This document shows, in pieces, positions 11,738-61,243 of a stretch of DNA of 64,000 nucleotides. The stretch lies in IMG/VR virus record IMGVR_UViG_3300011116_001007. One strand, given 5' to 3'. The notes under the pieces are model-generated. The model searched no databases, had not been told where the DNA came from, and was given only the letters and a program-made list of their open reading frames with translations. The stretch comes from a virus (taxonomy: Duplodnaviria; Caudoviricetes). The number at the start of each line of letters is the position of its first letter. Within the stretch, counting starts at the first letter, position 1. Position numbers and translations under genes: made by a program.

Positions 11738-12166
11738 CTACCTTGTTTGTTGTTGTACTTGTTGTTGAGTCAAGCTGTGCTGGACTTGATACAGTCCTGG
11801 ATCAATATTTAACACTCGAGACTGGTCCCAATTCAATATATATTTCCCATTGGCGATCAGGACTAAATTATCGGTTCCGGTGTCGGTTAACACAGCATCT
11901 TGCAATTCTGGATGATCTATCATAGCTATAGTATACAGTATTCCTAGTCCGCGAGCAACCGGACAATACATATTATCGCTCAATAATTGCCACGGATCAG
12001 GCCAGTCTGACTGGTCATCCCAGTGCAGATGATATGCTGACCAAGGTGCCCGAAACCACCATTGATTGACAGTTTCCGCTGCGGCCTGTGCAGACTGAGA
12101 TTGAACAGTGAGCCTGAGTTGCTGCCAGCTTTCAAGCCGCTGTGCAAAAGTTGAGAACCACATCAA
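11738..12166 (-). CDS. hypothetical protein
   Basis: 142-aa ORF coupled to the tail-fibre gene (ATGA overlap). Confidence 0.75.
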   Translation of the reverse strand: MMWFSTFAQRLESWQQLRLTVQSQSAQAAAETVNQWWFRAPWSAYHLHWDDQSDWPDPWQLLSDNMYCPVARGLGILYTIAMIDHPELQDAVLTDTGTDNLVLIANGKYILNWDQSRVLNIDPGLYQVQHSLTQQQVQQQTR

Positions 12167-13932
12167 TTTAAATGTGTCACGCTGTATTTGATGTTGCCAG
12201 TATATCCAGAGTTGGTTGATGAGTAACTCACTGTGATGTTGCCACCGGCTGAGGCCTCTGCAGCAGTCAATGTAATACCAGTGATACCATTTTCGATATA
12301 TTCATCTGTATAACCAAACCCGCCACCTGACCCATATACCACAGTGAGTTGACCGTTTCTGGCAAAAATATCTCTTGTGATGGTGTAATCCACCTTGAAT
12401 GATTTCATAATACTGGTATCTACTATGAACAAGGTGGCTGTGGAGTTGTTGGTCAAGGTATCGTTGATACCGTTGTCTCTGGCCCAGGTTCCTTGAGCCA
12501 ACTGATTGGCTATGCTGTTGCTGACTGCATTGCTGACATAATACGTGATACCACGATTGTTCATGCTCATGGCAGTACTGTTGGTGTTGTTCAATGCAAT
12601 TCTAGCATACACTGTACTGTTGGCAGTGGTACGTGTGAACATGTCGCCCACACTGATGTTGTTGTCACCAGAAATCAAAATTATGTTGCTGGCCGGAGAA
12701 CCAATACCGGCAAAATGATTTCCTACATCATAAAATGTATTGTATGCGCTGGCGTTCAACGAACAAGCACTAAACACCACGCCTTCTGCGTAGATGTTGT
12801 CAAATGTATTTTGTACCACACGCACTCCGGTGGGATTGGTGCTAAAATACACGCCTTGATACAGCGTATCAAATGTGCTGTTGCTGTATGTGATACCTTG
12901 AACAGTTGCATTGGTGTAGGTAGCGTATGTACAGCCAGTGAATTTACAAGTGTCCATGATGATATTTTCACAGGCCGGCGAAGTACCGGCATAATTCACT
13001 GCACGAGTTCCAGCAGTGGCAACAGTCAGAGTACTGGTAGTTCCTGGCCCCGAAAATGTAACTCCGGTAGCTGAGCATTGTTGTGCATTTTGCCATAAGA
13101 ATGGATCGTTGGCCTGATCAGTTGCAAACGACATGTCTCGCACAGTGATATATTGTGGTGTGGTGGCACCATTGGCTCCCACGCTGACGCCTGTCTGTTG
13201 CAAACTGTCTGCGGTACTCACAACACAGGTGGGCAATGTTGTTGCAGCACCGGTGGTAATATTGCCCCAATAATACTGGCCACCGGTGGTTGTGCTGCCA
13301 AGACCGGTGCCTATGGGCACATCAAAGTTTGCCCGATAAAAACTGCCCGAGTCACTGACCAGCACGCCAGCAGAATATGCAACAGCGTTGGTCCATGGCA
13401 GTACAGAAAATTTAATAATGCTGGAGTTGGAACCTTCGCCATACAACAATGCATACGGCGGAACAGCAATGGTATCTGTCACAATGTATGTGCCAGCTGG
13501 AAAAAACAAACTACGGCGAATAGCTGTGTTGGATTCACGGCAATACAGTTGATAAAGAGCACGATTGATAGCAGCAGTATCATCAGTGACTCCGTCGCCT
13601 ATGGCACCAAAATCAGTGATCACTGCATAACTGTCAAGACGTTCTTGAATGCTTTGTGATATTGGCAAACTGGCACTGGGCCCAGTTTGTGCTGTGTATC
13701 CAGCAGCGGCACCTTGATAAGTGTAGGCTGTGGTAAAAGACAACACGTCGGAAAATTCTGTCAGTACTTCAGTATTTCCCACAATAGGGGCACCATCTTC
13801 AATGGTGCCATTTCCAATAAACAATCGACGTTCGTCAGTGGCCCAGCCAAATTCTGCACCGGCCAGCGGTTGTGGTAGGTCTTCTGTTAGACCTTTTCGT
13901 TGGGTAATTCTTGAAATTTGTACAATTGCCAC
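12163..13932 (-). CDS. tail fibre/tailspike-like protein with pectate-lyase-3-type beta-helix
   Basis: N-terminal MAIVQISRITQRKG...GAEFGW...LFIGNG anchor; DFGAIGDGVTDDTAAINRAL and LFFPAGTY motifs; Asn/Thr-rich beta-helix repeats; GTG start. Confidence 0.85.
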   Translation of the reverse strand: MAIVQISRITQRKGLTEDLPQPLAGAEFGWATDERRLFIGNGTIEDGAPIVGNTEVLTEFSDVLSFTTAYTYQGAAAGYTAQTGPSASLPISQSIQERLDSYAVITDFGAIGDGVTDDTAAINRALYQLYCRESNTAIRRSLFFPAGTYIVTDTIAVPPYALLYGEGSNSSIIKFSVLPWTNAVAYSAGVLVSDSGSFYRANFDVPIGTGLGSTTTGGQYYWGNITTGAATTLPTCVVSTADSLQQTGVSVGANGATTPQYITVRDMSFATDQANDPFLWQNAQQCSATGVTFSGPGTTSTLTVATAGTRAVNYAGTSPACENIIMDTCKFTGCTYATYTNATVQGITYSNSTFDTLYQGVYFSTNPTGVRVVQNTFDNIYAEGVVFSACSLNASAYNTFYDVGNHFAGIGSPASNIILISGDNNISVGDMFTRTTANSTVYARIALNNTNSTAMSMNNRGITYYVSNAVSNSIANQLAQGTWARDNGINDTLTNNSTATLFIVDTSIMKSFKVDYTITRDIFARNGQLTVVYGSGGGFGYTDEYIENGITGITLTAAEASAGGNITVSYSSTNSGYTGNIKYSVTHLN

Positions 13933-23529: not shown

Positions 23530-24525
23530 TTAGTTTTGCATTTTGAACATCTGCTGAAACAGTTCTGGGAATACAGCACGCCAATCTGTGCCTCGTCGTT
23601 GATCAATAGAATCCAAGGTAGCAATTATTTTAGATTTTCTGTTGTCTGTATCTTTAAGAGCGAACACCCCATTTGTTAATTGTTGTCGGTGTTCTATAGG
23701 ATCTGTAAATCGCGTGGTGTGGAAATTTGTTTGCAGCCACTCTTCTAACTGTTTAAGATTGTCGGAATTTAGTATGCCAACTGAGGTATTGGTAGCAAAC
23801 ATACAATTGTGCGGCGCATTATCAATATACCATTGCAAATTATCTGTCACCTGAGCCCACTTTGCAGGGAACCGTTGGTATTCAAATCTTTCACCAACAT
23901 CATCAATACTAAAATCAAGTTGCACTAACTTAAATTGCTCCCACAAATTCAACAACTCTTTATTTGGTAATATAGTCCCATTGGTGTTGTAATTTAAGTG
24001 TACTTGATCTTTGTGCTCAATTGCATGTAACAATTTCACATGTTCTTTACTCAGCAACGGTTCACCGCCATTGAAATGTATAAATTGTATGCTGCTCAAG
24101 TCGATGGTTTTCCAAAACTGATTGGCCGTTGATTTTTGTAATTCTATAGGTAGCCCAAGTTCTTGTTTCCACACACTACTGTTATTCGGCCCGCATATTA
24201 CACAGGCCAAATTACATGTATCGCCAGTCCAGTAATCCATACGAATTAGCTCAACCTTGTTGTTGTTAAGATTGTGGTCTTTATACCAAGAGTTGCTGCC
24301 TTGCCGTCGGCTTGTTAGTCCAGCAGCTTCGGCATCTTTACAATTACTACACGCTGTTGGTAACTGTCCAGTAGATATCTCATTGCGAAGACCAACAAGG
24401 TATTTGTTGTTTAAAAAATCAATTACTTCAGCTGAGCGTACAGGAGATATACAACAAGGCGAAATTGCTAATGCATTTTGCTGAGCCACAATGTTTATAT
24501 TTTTATAAATGTCAATGCATGTCAT
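23530..24525 (-). CDS. radical SAM protein with N-terminal SPASM/twitch-like Cys cluster
   Basis: CNLACVIC, FNGGEP, NTNGT and SIDD; N-terminal PCC...CSNC. Confidence 0.9.
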   Translation of the reverse strand: MTCIDIYKNINIVAQQNALAISPCCISPVRSAEVIDFLNNKYLVGLRNEISTGQLPTACSNCKDAEAAGLTSRRQGSNSWYKDHNLNNNKVELIRMDYWTGDTCNLACVICGPNNSSVWKQELGLPIELQKSTANQFWKTIDLSSIQFIHFNGGEPLLSKEHVKLLHAIEHKDQVHLNYNTNGTILPNKELLNLWEQFKLVQLDFSIDDVGERFEYQRFPAKWAQVTDNLQWYIDNAPHNCMFATNTSVGILNSDNLKQLEEWLQTNFHTTRFTDPIEHRQQLTNGVFALKDTDNRKSKIIATLDSIDQRRGTDWRAVFPELFQQMFKMQN

Positions 24526-38589: not shown

Positions 38590-39393
38590 ATGAAATACTG
38601 TGTAGTTACCACTTTTAATGCCGCTGGTTACGAAAAATACGGTAAGCGCATGATCCAAACGTTCTTACGCACCTGGCCCAAAGATGTACAACTAGTGGTA
38701 TATGCTGAAAAATGTACAGTTCGAGAACATGCTTCTAATCTGTTGATACACGATCTTGACTCAGCCAGTCCCGAATTGGTAGCATTTAAAAACACCTGGG
38801 GCAATGTTCCCAAAGCCAATGGTGATGTCAGTGCCGATCCTGCTCGGGCCCGACGTAAAGATGCTGGTAAAGGATTCAAATGGGATGCAGTTCGATTTGC
38901 TCACAAAGTGTACAGCATTTTCCACTGTGCAAAAAACACTCCCTGCGATTGGTTGCTGTGGATGGATGCTGACACCATTTGCCATAGTGCTATCACACAG
39001 TCTGACCTTGACAGGCTGTGTTTTAGTTTGGTTGATTTGTGTTTTTTAGGGCGCGCTCGCAAATATACCGAATGTGGATTGTACGCAATGAAATTAGCAA
39101 GTCCTGCTGTTGGCACATTTTTACAAAAATTTCAAGAAATGTATGATCATGCCGAAACTGGAATTTTTACCCTAGAAGAATGGCATGATAGTTTTGTGTT
39201 TGATGCTGTGCGAAAACAATGTAACTTGATTGAATTGGACTGGAGCGGTCATTTGATCTCTGGCGAAGGACATCCGTTGATCAATAGCGATTGGGGTGCA
39301 TATTTAGATCATCTCAAAGGTGACAGAAAAGATCAAGGACGCAGCAGGCGATCAGACTTAAAAGTCAAAAGAACTGAAGCATACTGGCAATGA
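38590..39393 (+). CDS. nucleotide-diphospho-sugar transferase-like glycosyltransferase
   Basis: VVTTF, AVRFAHKV, WLLWMDAD (DxD), WHDS and DHLKG. Confidence 0.75.
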   Translation: MKYCVVTTFNAAGYEKYGKRMIQTFLRTWPKDVQLVVYAEKCTVREHASNLLIHDLDSASPELVAFKNTWGNVPKANGDVSADPARARRKDAGKGFKWDAVRFAHKVYSIFHCAKNTPCDWLLWMDADTICHSAITQSDLDRLCFSLVDLCFLGRARKYTECGLYAMKLASPAVGTFLQKFQEMYDHAETGIFTLEEWHDSFVFDAVRKQCNLIELDWSGHLISGEGHPLINSDWGAYLDHLKGDRKDQGRSRRSDLKVKRTEAYWQ

Positions 39394-40202
39394 ACTGGAT
39401 CTGTCTAAGTAAAAATGGCGAAGATGAGTACATTGATATGTTTGCTCGTGGCGCAGGCATGGAACCTACCCCGCTGGAAACTTGGAACTACGAAGATAGT
39501 ACTGAGCCGCTGGTGTTGCGTGGTATCATGAAACACAAGATAATCAAACGCTGCTGGCAAGACAAGCGATTTTTTTGGTACATGGATTCAGGTTATCTGG
39601 GCAATCGCCCCAGCATCAAAAACCCATACGGATGGAAGCACTGGCATCGCATAGTGCCCAATGACCTACAACATGATCAGATCATACCGCGGCCAGCTGA
39701 TAGATTGCAACGATTGGAACTGTACATGCGACCATATCATCAACACAGTCGCAACATATTGATTGTGGCACCTGACCACAAACCTTGTGCGTTTTACGGG
39801 TTTGAATTGGATGACTGGTTGACCAACGTCAAGAATGAACTGCAAATGTACACTGACCGACCAGTAAAGATTCGAGAGCGGCCGGCCAGCAGAATGGATC
39901 GCAAAACTCAACGTGCAGAAGATTGGTTGGCCGACGTGCATGCTGTGGTCACATTCAACAGCACAGCGGCCACAGAAGCTATCTTAGCAGGCGTGCCAGT
40001 GTTTACCACAGCACCTTGCAATGCTGCCAACCCAATGAGCAATCACGATCTTTCCAAAATTGAAGAGCCGTGGTTTCCTACAGATGATCAACGCCATGCT
40101 TGGCTTTGCCATCTTGCATATGGGCAATTCCATATAGATGAATTTAAAAATGGTATGGCATATCGCATACTGAAACAAACACAGGAGATGCTACATGTAT
40201 GA
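39390..40202 (+). CDS. KpsS/KpsC-like capsule-synthesis glycosyltransferase
   Basis: MDSGY, IRERP and HAVVTFNSTAATEAILAGVPV. Confidence 0.7.
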   Translation: MNWICLSKNGEDEYIDMFARGAGMEPTPLETWNYEDSTEPLVLRGIMKHKIIKRCWQDKRFFWYMDSGYLGNRPSIKNPYGWKHWHRIVPNDLQHDQIIPRPADRLQRLELYMRPYHQHSRNILIVAPDHKPCAFYGFELDDWLTNVKNELQMYTDRPVKIRERPASRMDRKTQRAEDWLADVHAVVTFNSTAATEAILAGVPVFTTAPCNAANPMSNHDLSKIEEPWFPTDDQRHAWLCHLAYGQFHIDEFKNGMAYRILKQTQEMLHV

Positions 40203-40845
40203 AGAATTAGGATGGTGGTTCCCGGACGCCGAAGATCATTTTCCCAAGATGCTGAAAAAGAATATCAGCAAAGGTGGACCAGCAGAATATCAGCAACCAG
40301 TGCGTTTACGCAGCTTGACACATGTTAAAAAATTCAATGTGGCCTTAGATGTGGGTGCCAATGTGGGATTGTGGAGCAGAGATCTTGTTAAGAAATTTGA
40401 CAAAGTTATTGCATTTGAACCAGTGGGAATATTTAGAGAATGTCTAGAAAAAAACGTAAACGGGCCTAACTTTTTTATCAGCCCCATGGCTCTGGGCGAT
40501 CAAGATACCAAAGCACAAATGACCATAACTGAAGGCAATACTGGGCATACACACATAGATCCAACCAGCATTGGCTCAGGTGATACCACAGTGGTCAAAC
40601 TAGACAATCTAGGCATAGACAATGTTGATTATATCAAAATGGATTGCGAAGGTTTTGAATATCGTGTGATACAAGGTGCTGAACAAACCATCAAGCGATG
40701 CCGTCCAGTGATTGTGGTAGAACAAAAACCGCACGACATGTACAGCAAAGACTATGGACAATTTGCAGCTATTGAATTGCTGGAATCGTTTGGTATGACC
40801 AAATTGGATCAAGTCAAAGACGACTGGATCATGGGATGGAAATAG
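40195..40845 (+). CDS. FkbM-family methyltransferase
   Basis: ALDVGANVG, AFEP, LDNL, IKMDCEGFEYRVIQGA and PVIVVE. Confidence 0.92.
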   Translation: MYEELGWWFPDAEDHFPKMLKKNISKGGPAEYQQPVRLRSLTHVKKFNVALDVGANVGLWSRDLVKKFDKVIAFEPVGIFRECLEKNVNGPNFFISPMALGDQDTKAQMTITEGNTGHTHIDPTSIGSGDTTVVKLDNLGIDNVDYIKMDCEGFEYRVIQGAEQTIKRCRPVIVVEQKPHDMYSKDYGQFAAIELLESFGMTKLDQVKDDWIMGWK

Positions 40846-41462
40846 AAAATCCTGACAAAGGTGCTGCGGATTCTGCAGCCTGGGATCGCAAATGGTCTCA
40901 TGATCGCTATGTGACCAAACGCCGTGCTAGTTTTGAAATCGTTGATGCATACTTGAATCAACCTGTTGGTAGATTGTTGGACATAGGCTGCGGATTTGCA
41001 TATGACAGCAGATGGTTCAATCAAAAGTACGGCACAGAACTTTGGCTATTAGATGGAGATGCCAGTACCAACGCTACCAAGCCAGAGTCGGCCAGCTATG
41101 GCAACTGGAACACCACCAGCAGTGAATTAAAGTTCTATCACACTTTTGAGTTCTTGGATGCAAAACTAAAAGATCTAGGCACAAAGAATTATCGCCTGGT
41201 TGATGCCAACAATATTTCTATACCCAATGACGTAAAGTTTGATGTCATAACCAGTTGGCTCAGCTGCGGACATCATTATCCAGTAAATACTTACAAGGAG
41301 TTGATGCGAAAACATTCACATGCCAACACTAGGATTGTGTTGGACATACGATGCAAAGGCTCTGAAACCAATTTTGTCGGCGTGGATGGATTTGAAATTG
41401 TCAATGTGATATCCAACGCGGGTGGCAAGAAAAGAGCAACTGTGGAGATAAGATTGTTATGA
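40836..41462 (+). CDS. class I SAM-dependent methyltransferase
   Basis: LLDIGCG, LLDG and FDVITSWLS. Confidence 0.8.
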   Translation: MEIENPDKGAADSAAWDRKWSHDRYVTKRRASFEIVDAYLNQPVGRLLDIGCGFAYDSRWFNQKYGTELWLLDGDASTNATKPESASYGNWNTTSSELKFYHTFEFLDAKLKDLGTKNYRLVDANNISIPNDVKFDVITSWLSCGHHYPVNTYKELMRKHSHANTRIVLDIRCKGSETNFVGVDGFEIVNVISNAGGKKRATVEIRLL

Positions 41463-42130
41463 GTCCATACTACGAAGAATCTGTCAGACTAGGTACTGAG
41501 TTCCAACGGAACAACAAGAACTGGGCTGGATACGATGTGGTCAAATATCAAAAAAAAATTAAGCACTTGGTAGATCGTTACAAAGCCAAAACTATATTGG
41601 ATTACGGTTGCGGCAAAGGACTACAATATCAGGAAAAATTACCATATGGCCAACTGCCCGGTGATCCAATTCCGTTGGACCAATGGAAAACATTTGACGA
41701 ATATCTTGGCGTTACAGTATATCCCTATGATCCATGTGTACCTGAACACAATCAATTGCCTGATCCCAAAATCAAATTTGATGGTGTAATCTGCACACAA
41801 GTGCTCAACAGCATACCCGACGATGACATGCCATGGGTGCGGGATCTATTGCAACAGCATTCAGCTAAATTTTGTTTCATCGGAATAAACTTTCAACGTG
41901 AGGCCAAAAGCAAAAAAACCATGTATGATCCCGAGTATTTCCGCTTGCCGCGCACAAGAGAATTCTTCCGCAGCTACTACAACAACTGGTCCGGCAGTGA
42001 TTTGTTCTGGTGGTGGAAGGATCGCCCTTACTATGCAGAATGGGCAGATGATCAATTGTCGGGACAATGGCAAGACGTTCCTTCAGAGTTTGAAGGCAAA
42101 TATAAGTATATAGAGGTCAATCACAGATGA
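41459..42130 (+). CDS. class I SAM-dependent methyltransferase
   Basis: ILDYGCGKG, YDP and FDGVICTQVL. Confidence 0.8.
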   Translation: MSPYYEESVRLGTEFQRNNKNWAGYDVVKYQKKIKHLVDRYKAKTILDYGCGKGLQYQEKLPYGQLPGDPIPLDQWKTFDEYLGVTVYPYDPCVPEHNQLPDPKIKFDGVICTQVLNSIPDDDMPWVRDLLQQHSAKFCFIGINFQREAKSKKTMYDPEYFRLPRTREFFRSYYNNWSGSDLFWWWKDRPYYAEWADDQLSGQWQDVPSEFEGKYKYIEVNHR

Positions 42131-42687
42131 TAATCAATCAAGACTACAAAGATCAATTAGCTACCATGCATGGTCAAGGCAGATTCAGAAGAGGTAGCAA
42201 AATACTATCCACCATAACTCCGTTCCTTAAACAATATCAACCCACAAGCGTATTGGATTTTGGATGTGGGCATGGAGAACTAATTCGGAGTATTGCCGAG
42301 GCATACCCGGGTACAACAGTGGATGGATATGATCCAGGATCAGCTACACACAGTGAAATACCAGCAGAGTCATTTGATGCTGTGGTCAGCGCGGATGTAT
42401 TTGAGCATATCGAGCCCGAGCATCTGGATCAAACATTGCAGTTGATTGGTCAAAAGATGCAGCGTGTGGGCTGGTTCCGTATTGCATGTTACCCAGCCAA
42501 AAAGGTGTTATTAGATGGGCGCAATGCTCATCTCATAGTGGAACAACCTGCGTGGTGGCGAGAAAAGCTGTTGAAAAACATGTCCATTGAAATTGTGCAT
42601 GAAGATATCAGCGTGTTTGACAAAAGTTACAAATGGCCACATGTCAAAGGTTGCAACTACGACGTAACTGTGCTGCGAGTCAAATAA
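42127..42687 (+). CDS. class I SAM-dependent methyltransferase
   Basis: VLDFGCGHG, GYDPG and FDAVVSADVFEHI. Confidence 0.88.
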   Translation: MIINQDYKDQLATMHGQGRFRRGSKILSTITPFLKQYQPTSVLDFGCGHGELIRSIAEAYPGTTVDGYDPGSATHSEIPAESFDAVVSADVFEHIEPEHLDQTLQLIGQKMQRVGWFRIACYPAKKVLLDGRNAHLIVEQPAWWREKLLKNMSIEIVHEDISVFDKSYKWPHVKGCNYDVTVLRVK

Positions 42688-50426: not shown

Positions 50427-53400
50427 TCATTTGATTAAAGCTAATGATTTTATTCTTGCCAAAAGCGCATCACCTTCACGTGATTCGCGAGTGACATCAA
50501 CATTTGTAACAGTGTTGTTGGGCAGCCGTGGTGCTTTATCTAGCGAGCTAAGTGGTGGTTCTTGGTCAAAAACCGGGGGCCCAAGATCGTCTCTGTTGCT
50601 GTAGGAAACTGGGTACGAGTCGTCAGAGCCTGGTATATCTGTATCTGGGTCTATACGGTTAGGCTGAACAACAGGTTGGTCTGAGTGAGGCAAGAAGTAT
50701 CTTGATCTTGAATTGCCTTTGTTAGGTGTATTATTTGGATCAGATCCATCTGTTGGCAGTGGTGGATATCCATCACTGCCCCACCATTTTTTGCCGGGCA
50801 GTTGGCGACTTTGAAAATATGGGCTGGTGAAACCTTTTGCTCTGTTTTGAGCTGGAGCATCAGCTTCGCTTACTTTGGTCTGATTCATGAGGTCAGACCA
50901 GGCATCATCATCTGTATCCGGAACTGATTTCATCATGTCGTCCCAGGAATTTTTATCCAATTCTCCCGGCGGCAATCCCAAATCTACAGGTGGTTTTTCA
51001 ACGCCGTTGGGATTTAGAGAATTTATATAGTTGGCATCATTCATCTTGCGATCATTTGGCTCTTCGTCACGCTGCATAGCAAAAGCATCCGGATTGTTAG
51101 GATTGATCAGCATGTGAGCCAAGGCAGGATCAACATTTGGATTTTTCAACTTTCCAAGACGTGCTGTTTCTGCACTGCTTTGATCTGCATCATCATAATT
51201 GTAGTAGTTGGATCCGCCTTGACCTGAATGTGCTTGGCCTTTGGGCTCTTCGTCTTGGTAGTCGTAACCTTGCTGACCCAAATGTGCTTGGCCTTTAGGC
51301 TCTTCATCCTGGTAGTCCGAACCGCCCTGGCCAGCATGTGCGGCGCCAGGAGTTTTAAACGATGGTGCCACATCTGCAGCCGACGACTTGTCCTGCCCAG
51401 TCATTCTGGCCAGTAGATCATTGGTGGATTTTTGCAACGAAGAACGGTTACCTGCTTTGTACATACCAGCCAGTTTCATCAGTCGTTGAATTTGTGGCAT
51501 ATCAAGGCTTGGTGGGGTGGGAGGCGTTGGCGCAGTTGGTGGGGTGGGAGGCGTTGGCGCAGTTATTCCCATGCCTGCTGCCATCCCGGGCATTGTGGGC
51601 ATTGTGGGCATTGTGGGCATTGTGGGCATTGTGGGCATTCTCATACCAGACATCTGCGGCATTGACCGTGTCTTTGTTTCTTCGGCCAGTTGGATGCCTG
51701 TAGACAAAATGTCTTCGTACATGCCTTGCGACCAGCATTCAGACAAGCCGTGCTCTGGACAGTATTCACCTTCCATGGTGTAGTTGCATTCGGTCAGTGG
51801 CGCTGGTCTGCCATTGAGTCCGCGAGTGCCCACTTGACTCATCACTTGGCCCACAGTTTGACCGTCAGACTGATGTGGCGTATCGACTGGTGCATTGCTC
51901 AAGATGTCTTCAGCAAAGCGATCGCTGATCCATTCATACGGATCGCCTGAGCGAGCTTTTTTAACCCCGTATGGCATGTCATCAAAATAGTAGTCATACA
52001 GTGCATCATACAGGTCTGAACTCATTTCTCCAGTTTGTGCAAAGTCTCTAACGTCACGTTGATATGTGGTCATGATATGTGCCAGTGTGCTGCCAGCATC
52101 ATTGAGCACATTTTCTTTCAGTGGCATGCCTGCCAGGCCACGCATACGTTGCAGGCTTTCAAAGGCAGCAATGTTGTCAGCTTCTGACATACCTCGTTGA
52201 CTTTTTGATTGTTCCCATTGGTCATATACTGTTTCATAGGCACTATATAATGTATCAATTTCGGGTATGCTAAGATCATACTTGTCAGGGAAATCACCTA
52301 TTGCTGACATTGCTTGGTCAACAGAATCATTGAATTTATTGTTTCTAAGTCCGTATTTTGCTATATTGAACCAGGCTGTTTTGATAGGATCACCATAGTG
52401 CCCAACCTTTGCCCAGTTTCCTACTTCTCGTAGACCCAAATCAATTGGTGGATTTTCACCAGCCATTTTTTCATTGTATGCGGCTAATCTTGCGACTTGT
52501 TCTTCATGCGAATCTTCCGCCACGCCTTGCTGCGGTTGAGCATCCATATCTGCTGCAGAACGATCAGGCATCTGTATGCCCAGTTCTTGCATTCTGGCTT
52601 GTATGTCAGTATCGTCCCACACATTGGCACGTGGGTCTTGTGCAGCCAATTCACCGATGCGATCAAACAACACATCGTCGCCGATCAAGTCATACAGTTG
52701 TTCTGTGGCATTGGTACCATCGGGTCCCGCAATCAATTCACCACTCATGAGCTCTTTGAGTCGGGTCATTTGTTCAGGAGTTTCTGGCAGGCTCCAGGTG
52801 CCTTCGGTAACGTTGTTTACCCAGTTTTCAAAAATTTCAGCTTCTTTCATTTCGCGTCCTTGTTGTATTTTTGCCAACAGTGGAAGAGCTTGCTCAATCC
52901 TGTCGTCAATGGTCTGTTCTATGAACAGTGTTTTGATATCTTCTACCAATTGGTCTTGTTCTGTGATGCTGGCCGGATGCCATGATTCAAAATAAGCCGT
53001 GTAGCCACGTGGGCTGCTCAATCGCTTGATGTTTTCTCTCAAGGACTTGTAATAAGTTTGAGCACCTTGTACCACGCTTTGTTTGACACCTTCTACCACA
53101 CGCCCCTGGCTGGCACGATTAAAACGTGCAAGAACCTTGAGCTCATTTATCATTTCACAAATGTGATTGCCGCGCACATCATACGGCTTGCCACCTTGAC
53201 GCACATGTTCCAGCATGGCTCTGCCTCCAGCTAGATTTGTAAATGGCAATCGATGTCGCTCACCGTCTGCTGTTTCTACAAAAATACTTTCCACATAACG
53301 GAAACGTGCGTCATTTTCGCCCAGATTGCGATTGTGTCGGATCATCAATCTTGCTTGGGTGGGCTCGCCGGCATAGCTGATTCTGCGTGTGCCATAGTAG

Positions 53401-53783
53401 CCTTCAAACAGGCCTTCTTTGATGGCGGCCAAGCCTTGCATGGTATACTTGAGCTTGCTTATGTCATCGCCGGTGTAAGTCCAGCGATGGCTGTTGGCAA
53501 ATTGACTCAGTTGCTGTTGAAATTCATACCATTCGTCTTTGTCCGCATCTTCCATGCCGCGACCTAAATTGTTGCCAAACATGGCTTTTAGATCATTTCC
53601 TGAGTCCAGTATGATCACCATGGTTCCGTAGTCTTTGCCGCTGCCGCTGACATAGTCAAATGTGAACACTTTGGCATCACTGCTGTCGCATACTTTTCCC
53701 TGCGAATCGCGCATGTCCGGGTGAAAATCTCGTGTGACCAGTAGGTCATTCAGTTGCTGAGCGATGTTGTTTTCTTGTGCCAT
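50427..53783 (-). CDS. large modular putative head/ejection protein
   Basis: 1118 aa downstream of terminase; late promoter 7 nt upstream; many (L/M/V/I)-x-E sites; low-complexity C-terminal third. Confidence 0.7.
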   Translation of the reverse strand: MAQENNIAQQLNDLLVTRDFHPDMRDSQGKVCDSSDAKVFTFDYVSGSGKDYGTMVIILDSGNDLKAMFGNNLGRGMEDADKDEWYEFQQQLSQFANSHRWTYTGDDISKLKYTMQGLAAIKEGLFEGYYGTRRISYAGEPTQARLMIRHNRNLGENDARFRYVESIFVETADGERHRLPFTNLAGGRAMLEHVRQGGKPYDVRGNHICEMINELKVLARFNRASQGRVVEGVKQSVVQGAQTYYKSLRENIKRLSSPRGYTAYFESWHPASITEQDQLVEDIKTLFIEQTIDDRIEQALPLLAKIQQGREMKEAEIFENWVNNVTEGTWSLPETPEQMTRLKELMSGELIAGPDGTNATEQLYDLIGDDVLFDRIGELAAQDPRANVWDDTDIQARMQELGIQMPDRSAADMDAQPQQGVAEDSHEEQVARLAAYNEKMAGENPPIDLGLREVGNWAKVGHYGDPIKTAWFNIAKYGLRNNKFNDSVDQAMSAIGDFPDKYDLSIPEIDTLYSAYETVYDQWEQSKSQRGMSEADNIAAFESLQRMRGLAGMPLKENVLNDAGSTLAHIMTTYQRDVRDFAQTGEMSSDLYDALYDYYFDDMPYGVKKARSGDPYEWISDRFAEDILSNAPVDTPHQSDGQTVGQVMSQVGTRGLNGRPAPLTECNYTMEGEYCPEHGLSECWSQGMYEDILSTGIQLAEETKTRSMPQMSGMRMPTMPTMPTMPTMPTMPGMAAGMGITAPTPPTPPTAPTPPTPPSLDMPQIQRLMKLAGMYKAGNRSSLQKSTNDLLARMTGQDKSSAADVAPSFKTPGAAHAGQGGSDYQDEEPKGQAHLGQQGYDYQDEEPKGQAHSGQGGSNYYNYDDADQSSAETARLGKLKNPNVDPALAHMLINPNNPDAFAMQRDEEPNDRKMNDANYINSLNPNGVEKPPVDLGLPPGELDKNSWDDMMKSVPDTDDDAWSDLMNQTKVSEADAPAQNRAKGFTSPYFQSRQLPGKKWWGSDGYPPLPTDGSDPNNTPNKGNSRSRYFLPHSDQPVVQPNRIDPDTDIPGSDDSYPVSYSNRDDLGPPVFDQEPPLSSLDKAPRLPNNTVTNVDVTRESREGDALLARIKSLALIK
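51210..51639. repeat. coding tandem repeats: 54-bp x2+, 27-bp x2, 9-bp x5
   Basis: GQxGxDYQDEEPKGQAH units (period 54 nt, e.g. 51228 and 51282); a perfect 27-mer at 51509 and 51536; GGGCATTGT x5 at 51588-51632 (MPT repeats). Confidence 0.9.
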
Positions 53784-53799
53784 GATTGTTTATTTAGTT

Positions 53800-55383
53800 T
53801 CAACGCATGATTGATATAAATGGCATGGGCTCAATTATGGTGTCACCGTGATCTTTGAGATGTGTGTCTAACTCCACGTGATATGTCTGTAACATCACCA
53901 ACATACGCACAGCCAACAACGTGGCCATGACCAAATCATCAGTTTCTCCGGGCTTGGCAGCAAAACTGGTGCCATGCGCCACAAATGTTTTGAGTTCAGT
54001 GATCAGTGGTGAACTGTGGATTTTCATGCGCCCAGACTCAATCAAGATTTTGGCCTTGTTGCAGGCCATGATTTTGCTTTTGTTTGTGGTGGTAAAACCC
54101 TTGCGAATTCTACGCCCAGCTGTGCCTTGCACTGAGTTGTCGCTGAGGAAATAGCCTGGAATATTTTCTTCGCCGTATTCTGCAATGGATATCAACGCTG
54201 CTTCGCCCAGGGTGTTGTTTTCCACACTGTAGTAGATCTTACTGGAATCTTGTACTACAGCATTGATTTCTTTGATGATGTCCACTAGTATTTTGACCTG
54301 AGTGGGCACATCTGTACGATCATGCCGCCATTCAGCCACTTGTATTGTGGTGTCTGCTTCAAATACCTGTATGGCACTGGGGTCGCCGCCGGTACCTAGA
54401 CTGGGATCTAGTGCCACAATGTACATCTTGTCCTTGCTGGGTTCTTTGTACCAGCGTACTTGCCCAGTTTTACGCAAGGGCTCACGTCCTTCAAGATCAA
54501 TCAATTTGGTAGGAGCAATCAGTGTTTCATCATTGATAATGAACTCACAACCCATTTCACGGCGGAAACGATCTTCGCCTAAGGCTGCTCGTTGTTGATC
54601 TGCCCAGGCTTCGTCACGATCTGGATGCTCATTCCAATAACTGCGAAATGCTCTGAATCCGTTGGTGCCCAGCACAGTTTGATTGCCATATTCATCCACT
54701 GTTTTGTTGGCACCTTTCCACAAGAATGCAAACTGATCTTCGTCACTGTTGGGGGTTGATGTAATAATTGCTTTACCGCCTGTGGCCAGTGTGGGCGATA
54801 TACTGGTCCAGAATTCTTTGGCAATGGTTGGGCGAACAAACGCAAACTCGTCACAGTACAGCAGTGAAATACTCATACCACGACCGGTATTTTCAGTAGT
54901 TGTGGCTGAAACAATACGGCTGCCGTTGTCAAACTCCAAACTGCCTTTGTTGTAACTGGTAGCACCGGCACGTATGTGATTGGGGCACAGTTCGTAGGCA
55001 TAGCGTATGCGTTGCATGATCTCTTGAGCGCCTGTGTACTTGTGTGCTGCAATCAACACTGTGGAATCAGGCACAAACATAGCATACCATAGTAGGTAGC
55101 CAGCAGCACTGGTTGATTTGCCTGTTTGTCGAGGCATCATGGAGATTGAATATCTGTAGTTGTGATACGTTTCGATCAGTCGGGTTTGATATTCAAAAGG
55201 AGAATATCGCATTTTGCCGCGTATGGGATGTTGTATGTAGAAAAAATGATCCATAAAGTACAGCGGTCCTGTAACAGGATCAGCACACAACACAAATTCT
55301 GTGATTTCTTCGTCTGAGTAAGTCTCGCGCCGATGAGGCGCCTTGACCAATGCTGTTTCTGAACTATTTTTTAGACCAATCAT
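53800..55383 (-). CDS. terminase large subunit (T4 gp17-like)
   Basis: YQ adenine motif, PRQTGKST, LYCDEFAF, ITSTPN, ALDPSLGTGGD, VENN and DDLVMA. Confidence 0.95.
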   Translation of the reverse strand: MIGLKNSSETALVKAPHRRETYSDEEITEFVLCADPVTGPLYFMDHFFYIQHPIRGKMRYSPFEYQTRLIETYHNYRYSISMMPRQTGKSTSAAGYLLWYAMFVPDSTVLIAAHKYTGAQEIMQRIRYAYELCPNHIRAGATSYNKGSLEFDNGSRIVSATTTENTGRGMSISLLYCDEFAFVRPTIAKEFWTSISPTLATGGKAIITSTPNSDEDQFAFLWKGANKTVDEYGNQTVLGTNGFRAFRSYWNEHPDRDEAWADQQRAALGEDRFRREMGCEFIINDETLIAPTKLIDLEGREPLRKTGQVRWYKEPSKDKMYIVALDPSLGTGGDPSAIQVFEADTTIQVAEWRHDRTDVPTQVKILVDIIKEINAVVQDSSKIYYSVENNTLGEAALISIAEYGEENIPGYFLSDNSVQGTAGRRIRKGFTTTNKSKIMACNKAKILIESGRMKIHSSPLITELKTFVAHGTSFAAKPGETDDLVMATLLAVRMLVMLQTYHVELDTHLKDHGDTIIEPMPFISIMR

Positions 55384-57259
55384 TCAGCATCCTTTCTGCC
55401 AGCATGCTGTGCCCAACAGGTCCAGCATGCATGCGATCTCTAGCATATCCAACTTCTTCTCTTGGTTTTGCCATGTGATCAAGCACATCATATACAAAAC
55501 ACGGAATATCAAGTTCGGCACATATGGCTTTTATTGCCAACTTATTTTTTTTGTAATTCAATCTGGAATTTTCGTCCATGGTATGCCAGTGTTTTAAAAA
55601 ACTATCAATTTCAGTTGTGCTGTGTGATTCACCTTGTGGTAGATAGTTTTCAACAGGCGGATAGCCCACCGCTTTTATCAATTCAAATCTAGCGGGCGGT
55701 GGTGCCAACACAAACACTGCTTTGGGTTTTAGTTTTGGAATCCAATATTCTGCCAGTCTAAAACAAGTGTCAGCTGATGCTCCGCCCCAGGCCATGGTGT
55801 ACGGAACCAATCCCAATTGTTTGCCCACTATCTGTGGCCAAGTGCTGTCAAGCGGTAGTCCTATGCCAATGGTAAAACTACAGCCCAGGGCCAGCATGCA
55901 GTCTTGATCATCAAACTCAGCACAACGAAATCCATAGCTGTTGATATCATATGTGATGGCACCGGGTTCCAACCAGCCATTATTTTTGAAATATTCGTGG
56001 TATTCAGGAACTTCGCAGAGTTTTTCAAAATTTTCTTTGCTGTCTGGCGGCATAAACTCTCGGGTGGTATTGACATAATATGCTTCAGGATTTGTAGAGG
56101 CTCCTGGGTGCCAGGGGGAATTTTTAAATTTTTGTGTCATTGTGTTTTTTTGAAAAGGATTTTGTAAATTATCAACAACGTGCTTGACATTGTCCAACAT
56201 TGATAAATGCCAATTGGTATTCATCAGCAACTGATAATTATGATCTATTGTGCTCTCAATCTGTTTTTGAACTGTCAATTGATCCATGTTGCATAATTTT
56301 TCAACCTGTTCAAAAGCAGCGGCCCATCTTTGTTTGTCATCAATGATGTTATCATAACTTTCATCTATCACATTGCCAAATGTTCGAAATCCCAACTTTT
56401 GCAAGTTGTTTAAAAAGTTGTAGCCGGAAAACACCACAAACAATCTTTTGGCCAACAGTGCTTTGGCTATTTTTTCTGTAAAAAAACTATACTCATTGAA
56501 TGCGTTGGTTTCGGTTATTATGCTATAGGCACACTGATTGTAGATGGTAATTGGAACTATCAGACTTACTTTTAAGTTTTCGCCCAGGTAATTCACGTTG
56601 GTAACCGAGCTCCAAAATGATGACGCAAATTCTACTTCGGGTTCCCAATGGTATTTTGAAACTGTATCCTGGCCTGGCCGAGCACCGTAGGTCATAAGAA
56701 ATTTTTCTCGATTGTTGCTGGCATTCACAGCGTCAAATACAAAATCTCTAAAAGGTCGACTCAGTCCAAGTAATGCATCAAAGTAAAAAGGTTTGTGCTC
56801 ATGATACGTGAGTTCATGCAGTTTGTGATTTAATCTTTGTTGATAAGGTTCAAGTTGATAGTGAAATTGAACGTTGTAGGGCAAAATATTAATTGCAGAA
56901 GTAACGCAAGCAGTTGGATATACTGGCAATATCCAATAGATGTTGGATTGATTGTGTATCTTTAAGATGTCAAGATGATATGCGTGAAATTCATTGTCAA
57001 GCGCAAAAACTGCTTCACTGCAATATTTGGTCTGTTCAATTTCCTGGCAAAATCGTGTGCCGTTGACCATTTGCTCATGATGGTCTTGATCATTTTTTGG
57101 TGGATCAAATTGATTGATACAATTTATAAATGCCAGTTTTCTAACAGCATCTGAGTTCACATACTGATCAATTGATCTAAAAATTTCATACGGTTGAACA
57201 AACTTGCAATGTTCAATTATTTCATCTGTCACTATATTGTTACTGTAGATTGCTAACAT
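55364..57259 (-). CDS. two-domain protein: glycosyltransferase-like N-domain plus SGNH-like C-domain
   Basis: N: SIITET...FTEKIAK...LGFRTF...IDESYD; C: LGCSFTIG, MAWGGAS and HAGPVGH; possible internal start at MTQKFK near 56140. Confidence 0.6.
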   Translation of the reverse strand: MLAIYSNNIVTDEIIEHCKFVQPYEIFRSIDQYVNSDAVRKLAFINCINQFDPPKNDQDHHEQMVNGTRFCQEIEQTKYCSEAVFALDNEFHAYHLDILKIHNQSNIYWILPVYPTACVTSAINILPYNVQFHYQLEPYQQRLNHKLHELTYHEHKPFYFDALLGLSRPFRDFVFDAVNASNNREKFLMTYGARPGQDTVSKYHWEPEVEFASSFWSSVTNVNYLGENLKVSLIVPITIYNQCAYSIITETNAFNEYSFFTEKIAKALLAKRLFVVFSGYNFLNNLQKLGFRTFGNVIDESYDNIIDDKQRWAAAFEQVEKLCNMDQLTVQKQIESTIDHNYQLLMNTNWHLSMLDNVKHVVDNLQNPFQKNTMTQKFKNSPWHPGASTNPEAYYVNTTREFMPPDSKENFEKLCEVPEYHEYFKNNGWLEPGAITYDINSYGFRCAEFDDQDCMLALGCSFTIGIGLPLDSTWPQIVGKQLGLVPYTMAWGGASADTCFRLAEYWIPKLKPKAVFVLAPPPARFELIKAVGYPPVENYLPQGESHSTTEIDSFLKHWHTMDENSRLNYKKNKLAIKAICAELDIPCFVYDVLDHMAKPREEVGYARDRMHAGPVGHSMLAERMLNDWSKK

Positions 57260-57304: not shown

Positions 57305-57871
57305 TCATTTGGCTGTTAGCCACGAATACGAACTTACTCTTAAAGAGTTAGCAGGTACAGGAGTCAGCATACCGTGCCATTGTAATTTTCTATACCCAGT
57401 TGAATCTGCATTGTTTATCATGAGATATCCTGCGTTTGGAACGGCTTCAACTTGATATCTCAGTGCAGCAGGATTGTTGTAATGATAAAATGCAGTGCCC
57501 AAATTGTCACCGATCCAGGTCATCTGAATAGCGCCTGGCAACTCCCCGTCAGTATGTATTCCGCAAATAAATCCTGGTTCATCAACCCACCAGCCTGTGC
57601 CCGAGTATTGCGCTACCGTACAATCCAGTGCTGTTCCAATCTTGGGCCACAGTTCTTCGCAATAGTCATTCCACTGTTGAATCCATTCTATTGCTGCATT
57701 ATCAATCTTGCGACGTTTTTGATGACCTGGTTGTGGCTGCCAGGGCAGTTTGGCCCAATCAGTGTCAAGGACCTGTTGAACCAGTGATGGTGGAAACAGA
57801 TCCATCACGCGGAACAAGTTTAGGTCTTGATCAACAGCAGTTATTTGCATAAGAATGCCAACTCCGGCCAT
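57305..57871 (-). CDS. 2OG-Fe(II) oxygenase-like protein
   Basis: HTD (HxD), a distal WH and R-x-S. Confidence 0.7.
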   Translation of the reverse strand: MAGVGILMQITAVDQDLNLFRVMDLFPPSLVQQVLDTDWAKLPWQPQPGHQKRRKIDNAAIEWIQQWNDYCEELWPKIGTALDCTVAQYSGTGWWVDEPGFICGIHTDGELPGAIQMTWIGDNLGTAFYHYNNPAALRYQVEAVPNAGYLMINNADSTGYRKLQWHGMLTPVPANSLRVSSYSWLTAK

Positions 57872-58989
57872 AGGCGCTGAAACTCGCCAGCTTTGTCTGG
57901 ATGATATTTGGTTTCATTGTTATGCACATGACGCCAAAAGTCTGTGTCAATTTTGCTAATTTTATCCACACTCAATCTATTGTGATAAGTGGTTAGTGCA
58001 TTGTCAAAAAACTGACGTTCAGCAGGTGTAGCAATGTTCATGGCATAGAATCTTTCAATCTCTGCAATTGCTGCTTGAGCAACTGCTGCACCGTGCAAGA
58101 ATGGATCAAGGTATTCAGGTTGAAACAAGTTTTGCCATAGCACTGTGGTTTTAGTTTGTTCGGCAAATTGTCTTAGTTCACAAATACGTGTGGCATTGTA
58201 CATGTTGTACACTGCATGTATACCACCCCAATGGCCTTGTGTGGTCATCAAGTGTTTGATCTTGGCAAGATTTTCTTTGATCAACGACCAACTGGCTCCG
58301 TGACGCACATACTCCAGTTGTTCACCAGTGTTATCAAAACTCATTGACCAGCCCACCCGGTTTCGTTTGGATAATTTTTGAAATATTTTGTTTTTGTCTA
58401 GATCCACATTCAAGTTTGTGATTAGTGTGACAATGGCATCCTGGGGTATGACATCTAGTAGCCGATCATTTTCTGGCAACAACAGTGGTTCTCCACCAAC
58501 CAAGGCCACCTCGTGTATGTGTTCATAGTGCTGTTCAATAAAGTCGCAGACTGAATCGTAGTAGGGACGAGCACCAGATTTGAATGGAATTCCTTTGATA
58601 CTGGCCCATTTTGAACTGCATGATTCGCCGCAATAATTACAACTTAGATTGCATGTGGTGTTCCAACGTACATCTACTATCACAGGATAATGATATTGGT
58701 TGCCAGCAGTGGCATAATCAAAATTGGGATTCACGTTGTTGTGCCATTGCCGTTCAGAGTCTGCTCCAAAGCGTTCAGCTCGAACACAATTGGAACAATA
58801 GTCGTGCGGCTGACCTTGTGCCAAACTGGCACGTATTTCTGTCATGAGATTGCTGTTCAGTATCTGCTCAATGGTCTGGCTGTTCAAATTGCCCAGCATG
58901 TTGGGATTGCCGGCACAACAAGTTTTAACATTGCCTTGAGGATTGATATGCAAGCCGCGCCAGGGTGCAGCACAGTAGAAATTGGTCAT
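57841..58989 (-). CDS. radical SAM protein with N-terminal SPASM-like domain
   Basis: FYCAAPW...CC...CSNC; CNLSCNYC; VGGEP; TN; SFD; TAAATA 4 nt upstream. Confidence 0.9.
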   Translation of the reverse strand: MTNFYCAAPWRGLHINPQGNVKTCCAGNPNMLGNLNSQTIEQILNSNLMTEIRASLAQGQPHDYCSNCVRAERFGADSERQWHNNVNPNFDYATAGNQYHYPVIVDVRWNTTCNLSCNYCGESCSSKWASIKGIPFKSGARPYYDSVCDFIEQHYEHIHEVALVGGEPLLLPENDRLLDVIPQDAIVTLITNLNVDLDKNKIFQKLSKRNRVGWSMSFDNTGEQLEYVRHGASWSLIKENLAKIKHLMTTQGHWGGIHAVYNMYNATRICELRQFAEQTKTTVLWQNLFQPEYLDPFLHGAAVAQAAIAEIERFYAMNIATPAERQFFDNALTTYHNRLSVDKISKIDTDFWRHVHNNETKYHPDKAGEFQRLWPELAFLCK

Positions 58990-60494: not shown

Positions 60495-60875
60495 TCAATA
60501 ACCTTTGAATGCTTTTATGGGACTGACTTTGTCCACAAAGTCTGGTTCAGTGCTGGTAGGAGTAGAAACCAATTTTTTTCCGCCAGGTGTGTTGGTCATG
60601 GCCAATGCTTGGTCAATCACCGATTCTATGCTGTTGTTCATACCGATCACAACGCCATGCTCGCCAAATGCAGTTTCTGCGCTCCATTCGGGAAAATCTT
60701 TGCTGAGTCCATCCTTGCCGGCATCACTTCGTGCTCGTGCCAGGGCCACACCAAATCTGTAATTGCGATAAGGGTCCGCGGCACTGAGTCCAGGAATCAC
60801 ATAGGTATATCGCATGGGGTCTGCGTCCTCGGGTGGCAGATTCTTTTGCTCGGTCACGAACTCTCGGGCTCTCAT
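60495..60875 (-). CDS. putative internal head protein, paralog A
   Basis: MRAREFVTE N-terminus; C-terminal SPIKAFKGY. Confidence 0.7.
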   Translation of the reverse strand: MRAREFVTEQKNLPPEDADPMRYTYVIPGLSAADPYRNYRFGVALARARSDAGKDGLSKDFPEWSAETAFGEHGVVIGMNNSIESVIDQALAMTNTPGGKKLVSTPTSTEPDFVDKVSPIKAFKGY

Positions 60876-61243
60876 CTGTATCCTCGGAATGCTTTTACCG
60901 GACTGACAGTATTGGTGCTGGGTATTTCCAAACTGCGGAGATCGCCGTGGTTGAGATCACTCACATCTGACCCAATGGCTTTGTAGGCCATTTTCAACAT
61001 GTCATGTTCTTCTTTGGTGTAAGGCGCGGCAATGTTCCAGCGTCCAACCCAAGATTCTCCATCAATATCAGGAACAAAAGTTCCATCGGTACTGGCTGTG
61101 GCCATCATGATGCGATTTAGTTCATACACACGATCAGCATGACCTGGATCAACAAATTTGTGCAGGCCCACACTAGCATAACTTTTTGTTTTGCTTAGGC
61201 GGCCAATTTGCTGACCTTCAGAAATAAATTCATTGGCACGCAT
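60872..61243 (-). CDS. putative internal head protein, paralog B
   Basis: MRANEFISE N-terminus; C-terminal SPVKAFRGY. Confidence 0.7.
   Translation of the reverse strand: MRANEFISEGQQIGRLSKTKSYASVGLHKFVDPGHADRVYELNRIMMATASTDGTFVPDIDGESWVGRWNIAAPYTKEEHDMLKMAYKAIGSDVSDLNHGDLRSLEIPSTNTVSPVKAFRGYR

Follow-up and report, generated by a model that had tools for sequence, protein, structure and literature searches.

P0001, a candidate protease-processed virion protein with motif-bounded cassettes, encoded beside the terminase gene of an uncultured jumbo phage

Introduction

In phage T4, the internal proteins (IPI, IPII, IPIII and Alt) and the core proteins gp67 and gp68 are directed to the head by a capsid-targeting sequence (CTS) and cut by the protease gp21 (PMC9026906, PMC8442874). 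The T4 CTS reads MKTYQEFIAE (PMC8442874), and gp21 cuts after Glu in the motif L/I-X-E (PMC9026906). The internal proteins of the T-even phages are poorly conserved, which has been attributed to an arms race with the host (PMC9026906), and in the phiKZ-like giant phages processed fragments of head proteins stay with the DNA and enter the host (PMC10052503). Here, these and related systems are compared with P0001, the product of the open reading frame (ORF) 50427-53783 (minus strand), whose stop-free translation of 1118 amino acids (aa) lies in a 64-kb stretch of DNA from the IMG/VR virus record IMGVR_UViG_3300011116_001007 (hereafter the window). P0001 consists of a conserved N-terminal domain followed by a series of segments bounded by similar short motifs, which a first-pass annotation of the window had read as protease-like sites delimiting exchangeable inserts. 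The motifs themselves were confirmed, and the reading of the segments as cassettes between putative protease sites was found to be well supported by comparison with relatives. P0001 is probably, though far from certainly, a precursor that is cut inside the prohead by a gp21-type protease at sites of the form Q-[GP]-[VML]-x-E.

The likeness of P0001 to the T4 internal and core proteins lies in a short hydrophobic-x-E motif with cutting after Glu, in a removable terminal targeting peptide (predicted for P0001), in cargo that is poorly conserved while the head core genes are highly conserved, and in the gp21-type proteases and MRAxEF[IV]xE N-termini encoded by relatives; Alt, furthermore, is processed at both ends. 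However, T4 cargo is made from separate genes, each product being cut once next to its N-terminal CTS, whereas P0001 carries many modules in one chain behind a domain of 410 aa, with internal sites and with its conserved peptide at the C-terminus instead of the N-terminus. The motif of P0001 also shows an extra preference (Q at P5 and G/P at P4, counted back from the Glu at P1), and its predicted fragments are acidic, not basic. Head proteins of the SPN3US gp53 type, from the phiKZ-like giant phages (PMC10052503), are similarly substrates of a gp21-related protease that cuts them at a number of motif sites, but they belong to a different phage lineage, their motif is A/S/G-X-E, their cleavages remove N-terminal propeptides (protease self-cleavage aside), and motif-bounded cassette exchange is undescribed there. 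Polyvalent proteins (Iyer et al. 2017, PMC5512222) share with P0001 the presence of several independent modules in one polypeptide, predicted to be packaged and proteolytically released, and a gene encoded with those for packaging, the gene for P0001 lying directly downstream of the large terminase (TerL) gene. Nevertheless, enzymatic or anti-defence domains can be recognised in polyvalent proteins, which usually also contain a peptidase of their own (PMC5512222), whereas the cargo of P0001 is small, unannotated or disordered and its proposed cutting would occur in trans, by the prohead protease. Pfam searches of P0001 and of ten long relatives revealed neither the conflict-related domains, at least two in number, by which polyvalent proteins are recognised, nor an embedded processing peptidase (MPTase or assemblin-like). 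In polymorphic toxins, VENN in CdiA and PxxxxDPxGL in Rhs mark the border before exchanged, unrelated modules; these motifs delimit one toxin at the terminus and are conserved at the DNA level, unlike the several internal borders per protein and the weak DNA conservation of the P0001 family. A protease-site-linked cassette array was not found described in the literature searched, and the comparison supports in part the view that the P0001 array may be a variation on the processed internal head proteins of the T4 type.

Motif Sequence and Enrichment

The eight motifs listed by the first-pass annotation were all located by translation: QQGVAED (aa 418-424; 52532-52512), RGMSEA (aa 530-535), LKEN (aa 555-558), LTEC (aa 663-666), QGMYED (aa 686-691), LAEE (aa 699-702), VSEA (aa 971-974) and SREG (aa 1101-1104). 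Taken alone these motifs are weak, as [LI]xE occurs 18 times in P0001 (12 of them within the N-domain) and GxxE six times, and it is only by comparison with relatives that the observation rises above chance. With a matrix trained on relatives, only the sites with Glu at 423, 534 and 690 score high in P0001. Pairwise BLAST of P0001 against 120 relatives resolved five recurring blocks, namely A (aa 1 to about 420), B (about 424-530, in a minority of relatives), C (about 530-690, common), a variable region, and a C-terminal block of 19-24 residues (from aa 1095 or 1100 to 1118). Block boundaries cluster at aa 400-429, 520-549, 660-669 and 680-719, which correspond to QQGVAE-D, RGMSE-A, LTE-C and GMYE-D/LAE-E, respectively (the last hyphen marking the predicted cut), and homology to P0007 restarts at residue 971, that is, at VSE-A. 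Motif-delimited segments, as originally proposed, are accordingly borne out by homology breaks at QQGVAE-D, RGMSE-A, LTE-C, GMYE-D, SRE-G and VSE-A, whereas LKE-N (Glu 557) received no comparative support from these 120 relatives.

The start of module C was projected onto 194 relatives, and the 109 distinct upstream contexts so obtained were used to build a logo. Module C was found to be preceded almost always by x-[GP]-[VML]-A-E, whether the upstream sequence was a Pro/Ala-rich linker from block A or a set of unrelated cassettes. The logo gave Q at P5, G/P at P4, V/M/L at P3, A at P2, E at P1 and G/S/A at P1', the invariance of the Glu at P1 not being an independent result because the picking of sites fixed that residue. 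With Glu at P1 and a hydrophobic residue at P3, Q-[GP]-[VML]-A-E would satisfy the L/I-X-E rule of T4 gp21. Applied to the variable interval between blocks A and C, which it had not seen, the matrix returned 127 hits against 1.9 in shuffled sequences, and the density of sites was 5.9 per 1000 aa in this interval against 0.10 per 1000 aa in the N-domain, a difference of about 60-fold. Individual relatives, such as P0006, P0015, P0017 and P0037, contain three to four copies of QGVAE each, separating unrelated segments.

Cassette Turnover

The ends of raw BLAST high-scoring segment pairs (HSPs) from all-against-all comparison were enriched at motif sites only 2-3-fold, a weak result because HSP ends in diverged domains are noisy, and this measure was replaced by a sharp-indel test, in which 297 non-redundant events with both flanks at least 70% identical and a gap of at least 25 residues were examined. 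The right boundary of the indel carried the motif in both proteins in 29-36% of the 297 events, compared with 1.4-2.3% at random positions, while the left boundary carried it in only 11-12%. Indels between orthologs had been proposed to start and end exactly at the motifs; on the left, many of them end within the P/A/Q-rich, low-complexity linker that follows block A. P0006 nonetheless provides a case that runs exactly from motif to motif, in which 63 residues between QQGLAE-G and KEGVAE-A are missing from P0016. When 257 proteins were cut at the matrix hits, 153 cassette clusters were obtained, 116 of them singletons, with a median internal cassette of 82 residues; many cassettes are compact (60-130 aa), and 42% of the clusters across the family are basic. 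Among pairs at least 90% identical across the N-domain alignment, one third can be aligned over less than half of the C-region. By comparison, the major capsid proteins (MCPs) of the same phages, encoded in the head modules L090, L091 and L092, show 97-100% identity among the best 120 of at least 8000 metagenomic matches, a uniformity that points to a phage lineage of great abundance and recent spread. In NCBI, one MCP homolog is assigned to Haliscomenobacter (Bacteroidota), a weak hint at the host. Taken from these alignments, the evidence supports the view that the segments are cassettes that may be gained, lost, duplicated and relocated.

The further suggestion that the boundary codons act as recombination points fared poorly. 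Codon usage in the motif is skewed relative to the gene-wide usage (GTG 61% vs. 29%, GCG 30% vs. 6% and GAA 96% vs. 82%). Nevertheless, where copies of the motif in one gene have the same residue, the codon is also the same in 59% of cases, compared with 45% expected, their identical tracts do not exceed about 11 nt, and CAA GGY ... GAA is all that the three strong sites of P0001 have in common. Retention of the motif as long identical DNA was thus rejected for the P0001 family; selection on the peptide explains the motif better than a DNA signal does, and the case for microhomology-assisted exchange at the motif appears weak.

Protease, Targeting Peptides and a Second Array in Relatives

Three large IMG/VR relatives were examined, referred to as G001 (152 kb, with an N-domain 83% identical to that of P0001), G002 (340 kb) and G003 (353 kb, with terminal repeats). 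Each encodes a homolog of Peptidase_S77, the family of T4 gp21, with E values of 1e-23 to 1e-27 and scores of 79-92 bits, above the Pfam cut-off; the protease gene of G001 lies at L090:10542-11180. In each relative, genes for a scaffold-like protein and a Gp23-type MCP adjoin the protease gene, arranged as in T4. An acidic protein encoded at the gp67/gp68 position in the relatives carries the sites EEQGMSE-D and GM[MF]E-[AN]. N-termini of the form MR/KAxEF[IV]xE were found in seven ORFs of G003 and in two ORFs of the window. The latter two are small and adjacent (60495-60875 and 60872-61243, minus strand; 126 and 123 aa), and their N-termini, MRAREFVTE and MRANEFISE, resemble the T4 CTS; homologous pairs of these two ORFs, together with five further such ORFs, are present in G003. 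These ORFs may encode internal head proteins.

G003 also has a different carrier with a cassette array of its own, the second such array (locus L096; ORF 64466-66094, plus strand, 542 aa). The N-terminus of this protein, MKAREFITE, is close to the T4 CTS, and five strong sites follow (NQGVTE-G, GQGVAE-G, EQGVAE-G, QQGVAE-G and KKGVTE-S), where about 0.1 would be expected at the rate of the N-domain. Four of its cassettes have counterparts, 36-76% identical, in P0001-family proteins of other phages. The presence of the S77 protease, of CTS-like N-termini and of a QGVAE array on a CTS-led protein indicates, therefore, that this lineage has a targeting-and-processing system of the T4 kind. The protease-like character originally ascribed to the boundary motifs is in keeping with the logo and with the S77 proteases and T4-like CTS peptides of the relatives, and to that extent the claim is sustained.

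N-Terminal Domain and Cultured Homologs

The globular N-terminal part, first put at about 310 aa, was found to be a conserved folded domain of about 410 aa (aa 1-410; 52554-53783, minus strand), as judged from family matches and from an AlphaFold2 model. It is homologous to PA5oct gp278 and 121Q gp5 (phrog_13484), the match to phrog_13484 covering aa 123-265 (hmmscan E 1.9e-12) and those to PA5oct and MIJ3 covering aa 5-311 (tblastn E 3e-12). Over aa 5-311, 121Q gp5 (428 aa) and PA5oct gp278 (496 aa) are about 25% identical to P0001. PA5oct gp278 is annotated by its depositors as a virion protein detected by electrospray ionisation tandem mass spectrometry (ESI-MS/MS) and 121Q gp5 as a 'structural protein', and it is on homology to these distant proteins and on their annotation that P0001 is proposed to be a virion protein. 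Both homologs resemble P0001 in the N-domain and in their position between TerL and the genes for single-stranded DNA-binding protein (SSB) and UvsX; unlike P0001, they are only 428-496 aa long and have no cassette array, Q-G-V-A-E motif or LARIKSLAL tail. A megablast search of the P0001 gene against cultured phages gave zero matches, and an exhaustive HMMER search retrieved 2412 clusters (50% identity level) at E <= 0.001, all of them metagenomic. Nearly all family matches span residues 1 to about 388-420, and total lengths range from about 400 to 1445 residues.

The AlphaFold2 model of the N-domain, with a mean predicted local distance difference test (pLDDT) of 80, shows an alpha/beta part followed by helices. 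Foldseek of this model against the PDB returned nothing at E <= 0.001, the wide VIA-align search gave a best Z of 6.8 for sub-domains only, and the ESM Atlas gave TM scores of 0.36 or less, with faint DUF559/TnsA-like rows that were not trusted. Its neighbours in BFVD were uncharacterised phage proteins only, one of them named 'Large polyvalent protein-associated domain-containing protein'. The identification of P0001 as a portal, an MCP or a scaffold was rejected, those genes being located elsewhere in relatives.

Modules of P0001

The N-domain is followed by a P/Q/A-rich linker (52515-52553, minus strand) that ends in the first site, QQGVAE-D, with Glu 423 at P1; this site has a matrix score of 15.6, and 82 HSP ends fall within 9 aa of it. 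Module B (aa 424-534; 52182-52514, minus strand), delineated from the BLAST blocks and the AlphaFold2 model, is an optional helical cassette that ends in the second site, RGMSE-A. It is absent from P0004, follows another cassette in P0008 and occupies other positions in P0037 and P0224. The unit of about 110 aa that had been taken for a self-contained helical domain is thus 111 aa long and moves as a unit; it is modelled as four to five helices with the site in a loop, at a pLDDT of only 50-75, so that the helical character is retained with low confidence. Module C (aa 535-665; 51789-52181, minus strand), found in 194 of 318 relatives, is a small helical domain whose core (aa 567-632) is predicted at a pLDDT of 89-97 and which ends in PLTE-C. 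Next comes a Cys-His mini-module (aa 666-690, CNYTMEGEYCPEHGLSEC; 51714-51788, minus strand) that ends in QGMYE-D and occurs as a separate site-flanked segment in relatives; 131 HSP ends fall at aa 681-697, around this site. The predicted sites at 423, 534, 557, 665 and 690 all sit in loops of the model.

Module D (aa 691-1103; 50475-51713, minus strand) was assigned from its composition as an acidic low-complexity segment. It contains LAE-E and VSE-A and ends in SRE-G. Its description as a low-complexity unit of about 410 aa was accurate, the segment being 413 aa long, rich in P/T/M/G/D, with an isoelectric point (pI) of 4.7. Three tandem repeats lie within it, a 9-bp unit repeated 5.8 times with 100% matches (51588-51639; PTM repeats), a 27-bp unit repeated 2.1 times with 100% matches (51509-51564), and a 54-bp unit repeated 2.4 times with 75% matches (51214-51341; 18-aa units of the form GQAHxGQGG..YQDEEPK). 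The module is wholly missing from the relatives P0023, P0029-31, P0037 and P0041, and residues 691-1103 are regarded as a motif-bounded insertion because several relatives run from GMYE straight into SRE-G and the tail. No Pfam family was matched by P0001 at E <= 0.01, and the C-regions of the ten long relatives matched only LysM, glycine zipper and, below threshold, SutA-RBD. Fold searches with modules B and C returned only generic helical bundles (Z <= 9.4), and a feature search of the Atlas with module C gave no usable match.

C-Terminal Tail

The protein ends in a conserved tail (aa 1104-1118, GDALLARIKSLALIK; 50430-50474, minus strand), a basic amphipathic helix and a candidate capsid-targeting peptide. 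A tail-like pattern terminates 232 of 283 family members, most commonly in the form [YF]ES[RK]EGDAxLARIKSLAL[IL][KR], and L30, R32, K34, L36 and A37 are invariant across 39 diverse tails. The scaffold proteins of G001-G003 end in SNVID[LI]KRLAGL, which is similar to the tail of P0001 (LARIKSLALIK), and among the 881 ORFs of G003 the tail-derived pattern matches the last 18 residues of the scaffold only. The resemblance is suggestive and no more, because the pattern was chosen partly after the scaffold had been seen, and it is confined to the C-terminal helix (IDLKRLAGL vs. LARIKSLALIK), the body of P0001 not being scaffold-like. On this basis the tail may be a scaffold-like targeting peptide that is removed at SRE-G. 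Complex prediction with the relatives' MCP and the 40-residue C-terminal tail gave a score of 0.01 and a mark of 0.32, to which no weight is attached either way.

Proposed Processing and Alternative Explanations

P0001 would be a virion protein, expressed late, of an uncultured jumbo myovirus in the T4-like group to which the Rak2/121Q and PA5oct phages belong. It would be made as a precursor and incorporated in the prohead, where a gp21-type (Peptidase S77) protease would cut every Q-[GP]-[VML]-x-E site behind its Glu; LTE-C, VSE-A and SRE-G, which are weaker sites of the hydrophobic-x-E type, would probably be cut as well. The predicted products are a 48-kDa N-domain, the helical modules B (12.6 kDa) and C (14.5 kDa), a 25-residue Cys/His knuckle, a 45-kDa disordered acidic segment and a 15-residue C-terminal helix. 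This helix is the best candidate for the signal that would bring the precursor to the prohead core, to be removed later as the T4 CTS is. Each module would be flanked by its own cut site, and therefore an insertion, deletion or exchange that keeps the sites should leave the precursor working, which would explain the different module sets found behind N-domains that are at least 90% identical. As to the fate of the fragments, we lean towards module C as a retained internal protein and the acidic segment as core-like filler.

A wider interpretation, held more tentatively and with clearly less confidence than processing itself, is that of a plug-in system used by a widespread lineage of jumbo phages from the environment, in which a small protein of any kind, once inserted between two Q-G-V-A-E sites, would enter the capsid, be released by the prohead protease and be injected with the DNA. 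The arrays would then be borne on at least two carriers, and the repertoire would consist of fast-evolving early host-takeover or anti-defence peptides. Under the same doubtful interpretation, one carrier would have a C-terminal scaffold-like targeting helix and the other a T4-like N-terminal CTS.

Several observations weigh against processing. Cutting is a prediction for every family member, and the virion proteomics of the cultured homologs is silent on the matter, because those proteins lack both cassettes and motif. The 64-kb window contains no gene for a protease, scaffold or MCP, these being deduced from relatives whose N-domains show 51-83% identity. P0001 begins MAQENNIAQQ and thus lacks an N-terminal CTS, and its predicted fragments are all acidic (pI 4.2-4.9) except for the tail, whereas the T4 internal proteins are basic. 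No effector domain was recognisable by Pfam in any cassette of P0001 and the ten long relatives. To these may be added the low share of left indel boundaries with the motif and the inflation of the counts over homologs by shared ancestry, as the homologs are not phylogenetically independent, although the contrast in site density between the variable interval and the N-domain is still large. Finally, Gly/Pro at P4 and Gln at P5 exceed the published gp21 rule and could serve another reader.

Unlikely, but the best placed of the competing explanations, is that P0001 is an uncleaved multidomain virion protein, in which QG[VM]xE serves as an inter-domain linker or docking motif and the C-terminal modules act in cis, for instance as surface or host-binding appendages. 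The predicted nature of the cleavage and a motif more specific than gp21 demands (Q at P5, G/P at P4) would agree with this, as would the LysM or glycine-zipper segments of some relatives, which are typical of envelope-contacting proteins, and an N-domain fold without a known match. Nevertheless, a Glu at P1 and a hydrophobic residue at P3 are placed in P/A-rich loops, the motif recurs in a protein at the prohead-core position and in the CTS-led protein of a relative, and a mere linker need not persist at both ends of every inserted cassette.

Somewhat less probable again is that P0001 is cut by the prohead protease and serves as core- or scaffold-like filler, its fragments being expelled or degraded before packaging and its variety reflecting relaxed drift and slippage of repeats instead of selection on cargo. 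In T4, fragments of the cut core proteins exit the head (PMC9026906). Such a role would suit an acidic composition of low complexity and the three tandem DNA repeats of module D; the likeness to the acidic protein at the gp67/gp68 position, the scaffold-like C-terminal helix and the failure of Pfam to find effector domains point the same way. However, 194 of 318 relatives retain module C and the Cys/His knuckle, the fold of the module C core is predicted with confidence, many cassettes are compact (60-130 aa) with 42% of them basic, and individual cassettes persist, at 36-76% identity, in the gene for another carrier in another phage, which argues for function. Very improbable, lastly, is that the motif is mainly a DNA-level recombination signal, with microhomology (GTGGCGGAAGG) driving cassette exchange in the manner of VENN-type motifs and the protease role secondary, for the codon skew that would favour it is set against same-gene copies that differ at many synonymous positions, strong P0001 sites that share few codons, and variants (PPVAE, GMSE and GMYE) that preserve the peptide pattern and not the DNA. 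Processing by a gp21-type protease is thus retained as the preferred explanation of P0001.

Genomic Setting

The ORF of P0001 (50427-53783, minus strand) has its start codon 16 nt past the stop of the TerL gene, which lies directly upstream (53800-55383, minus strand) and encodes a T4-type enzyme with the Pfam domains Terminase_6N and Terminase_6C (phrog_36964, E 1e-110). The 16 nt before the ATG (53784-53799, ..TGAAACTAAATAAACAATCATG) contain no Shine-Dalgarno-like sequence, and a TAAATA string within them resembles part of the T4 late promoter box. Downstream of P0001, Pfam and PHROG matches identified a gp32-like SSB, then two unknown ORFs and a UvsX-like recombinase. The order TerL, P0001, SSB and recombinase is the same as that of gp4-gp7 in Escherichia phage 121Q, and it is similar in Pseudomonas phage PA5oct, in which one additional structural gene separates TerL from gp278. 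The gene is situated beside TerL and genes for replication and recombination, outside the head module, and the remainder of the 64-kb window is occupied by genes for replication and nucleotide metabolism.

A 631-aa ORF overlapping the TerL start (55364-57259, minus strand) had no Pfam or PHROG match; in T4-like phages a small terminase or structural gene is expected just ahead of TerL. Two radical-SAM (S-adenosylmethionine) ORFs were observed (57841-58989 and 23530-24525, both minus strand), the former with an N-terminal SPASM domain and some 2.5 kb upstream of the terminase. In a further block (39390-42687, plus strand), the genes run against those on either side; it contains a series of four SAM-dependent methyltransferase ORFs (one FkbM-type, three of class I), each overlapping the next at stop and start, and includes a faint glycosyltransferase-like ORF. 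A 589-aa ORF (12163-13932, minus strand) has a pectate-lyase-like beta-helix (Pect-lyase_RHGA_epim, E 1e-15) and a weak match to a tail-spike PHROG, and may encode a depolymerase or tail spike amid the replication genes.

Biological Significance

If the sites of P0001 are cut as predicted, the phage would be able to diversify the contents of its capsid without a new targeting signal for each cargo, because the cargo would be inserted between two protease sites of a carrier that is already targeted. The T4 paradigm of CTS and gp21 would thereby be extended to uncultured phages of 150-350 kb that combine a near-uniform MCP with a freely varying P0001. The family would also offer a large catalogue of small proteins possibly acting in the first minutes of infection, with 153 cassette clusters in 257 proteins, most of them without a known family, and a natural design rule for the loading of foreign proteins into large capsids. 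Should the more tentative plug-in interpretation prove correct, the P0001 family would represent a polyprotein counterpart of the hypervariable internal-protein loci of the T-even phages.

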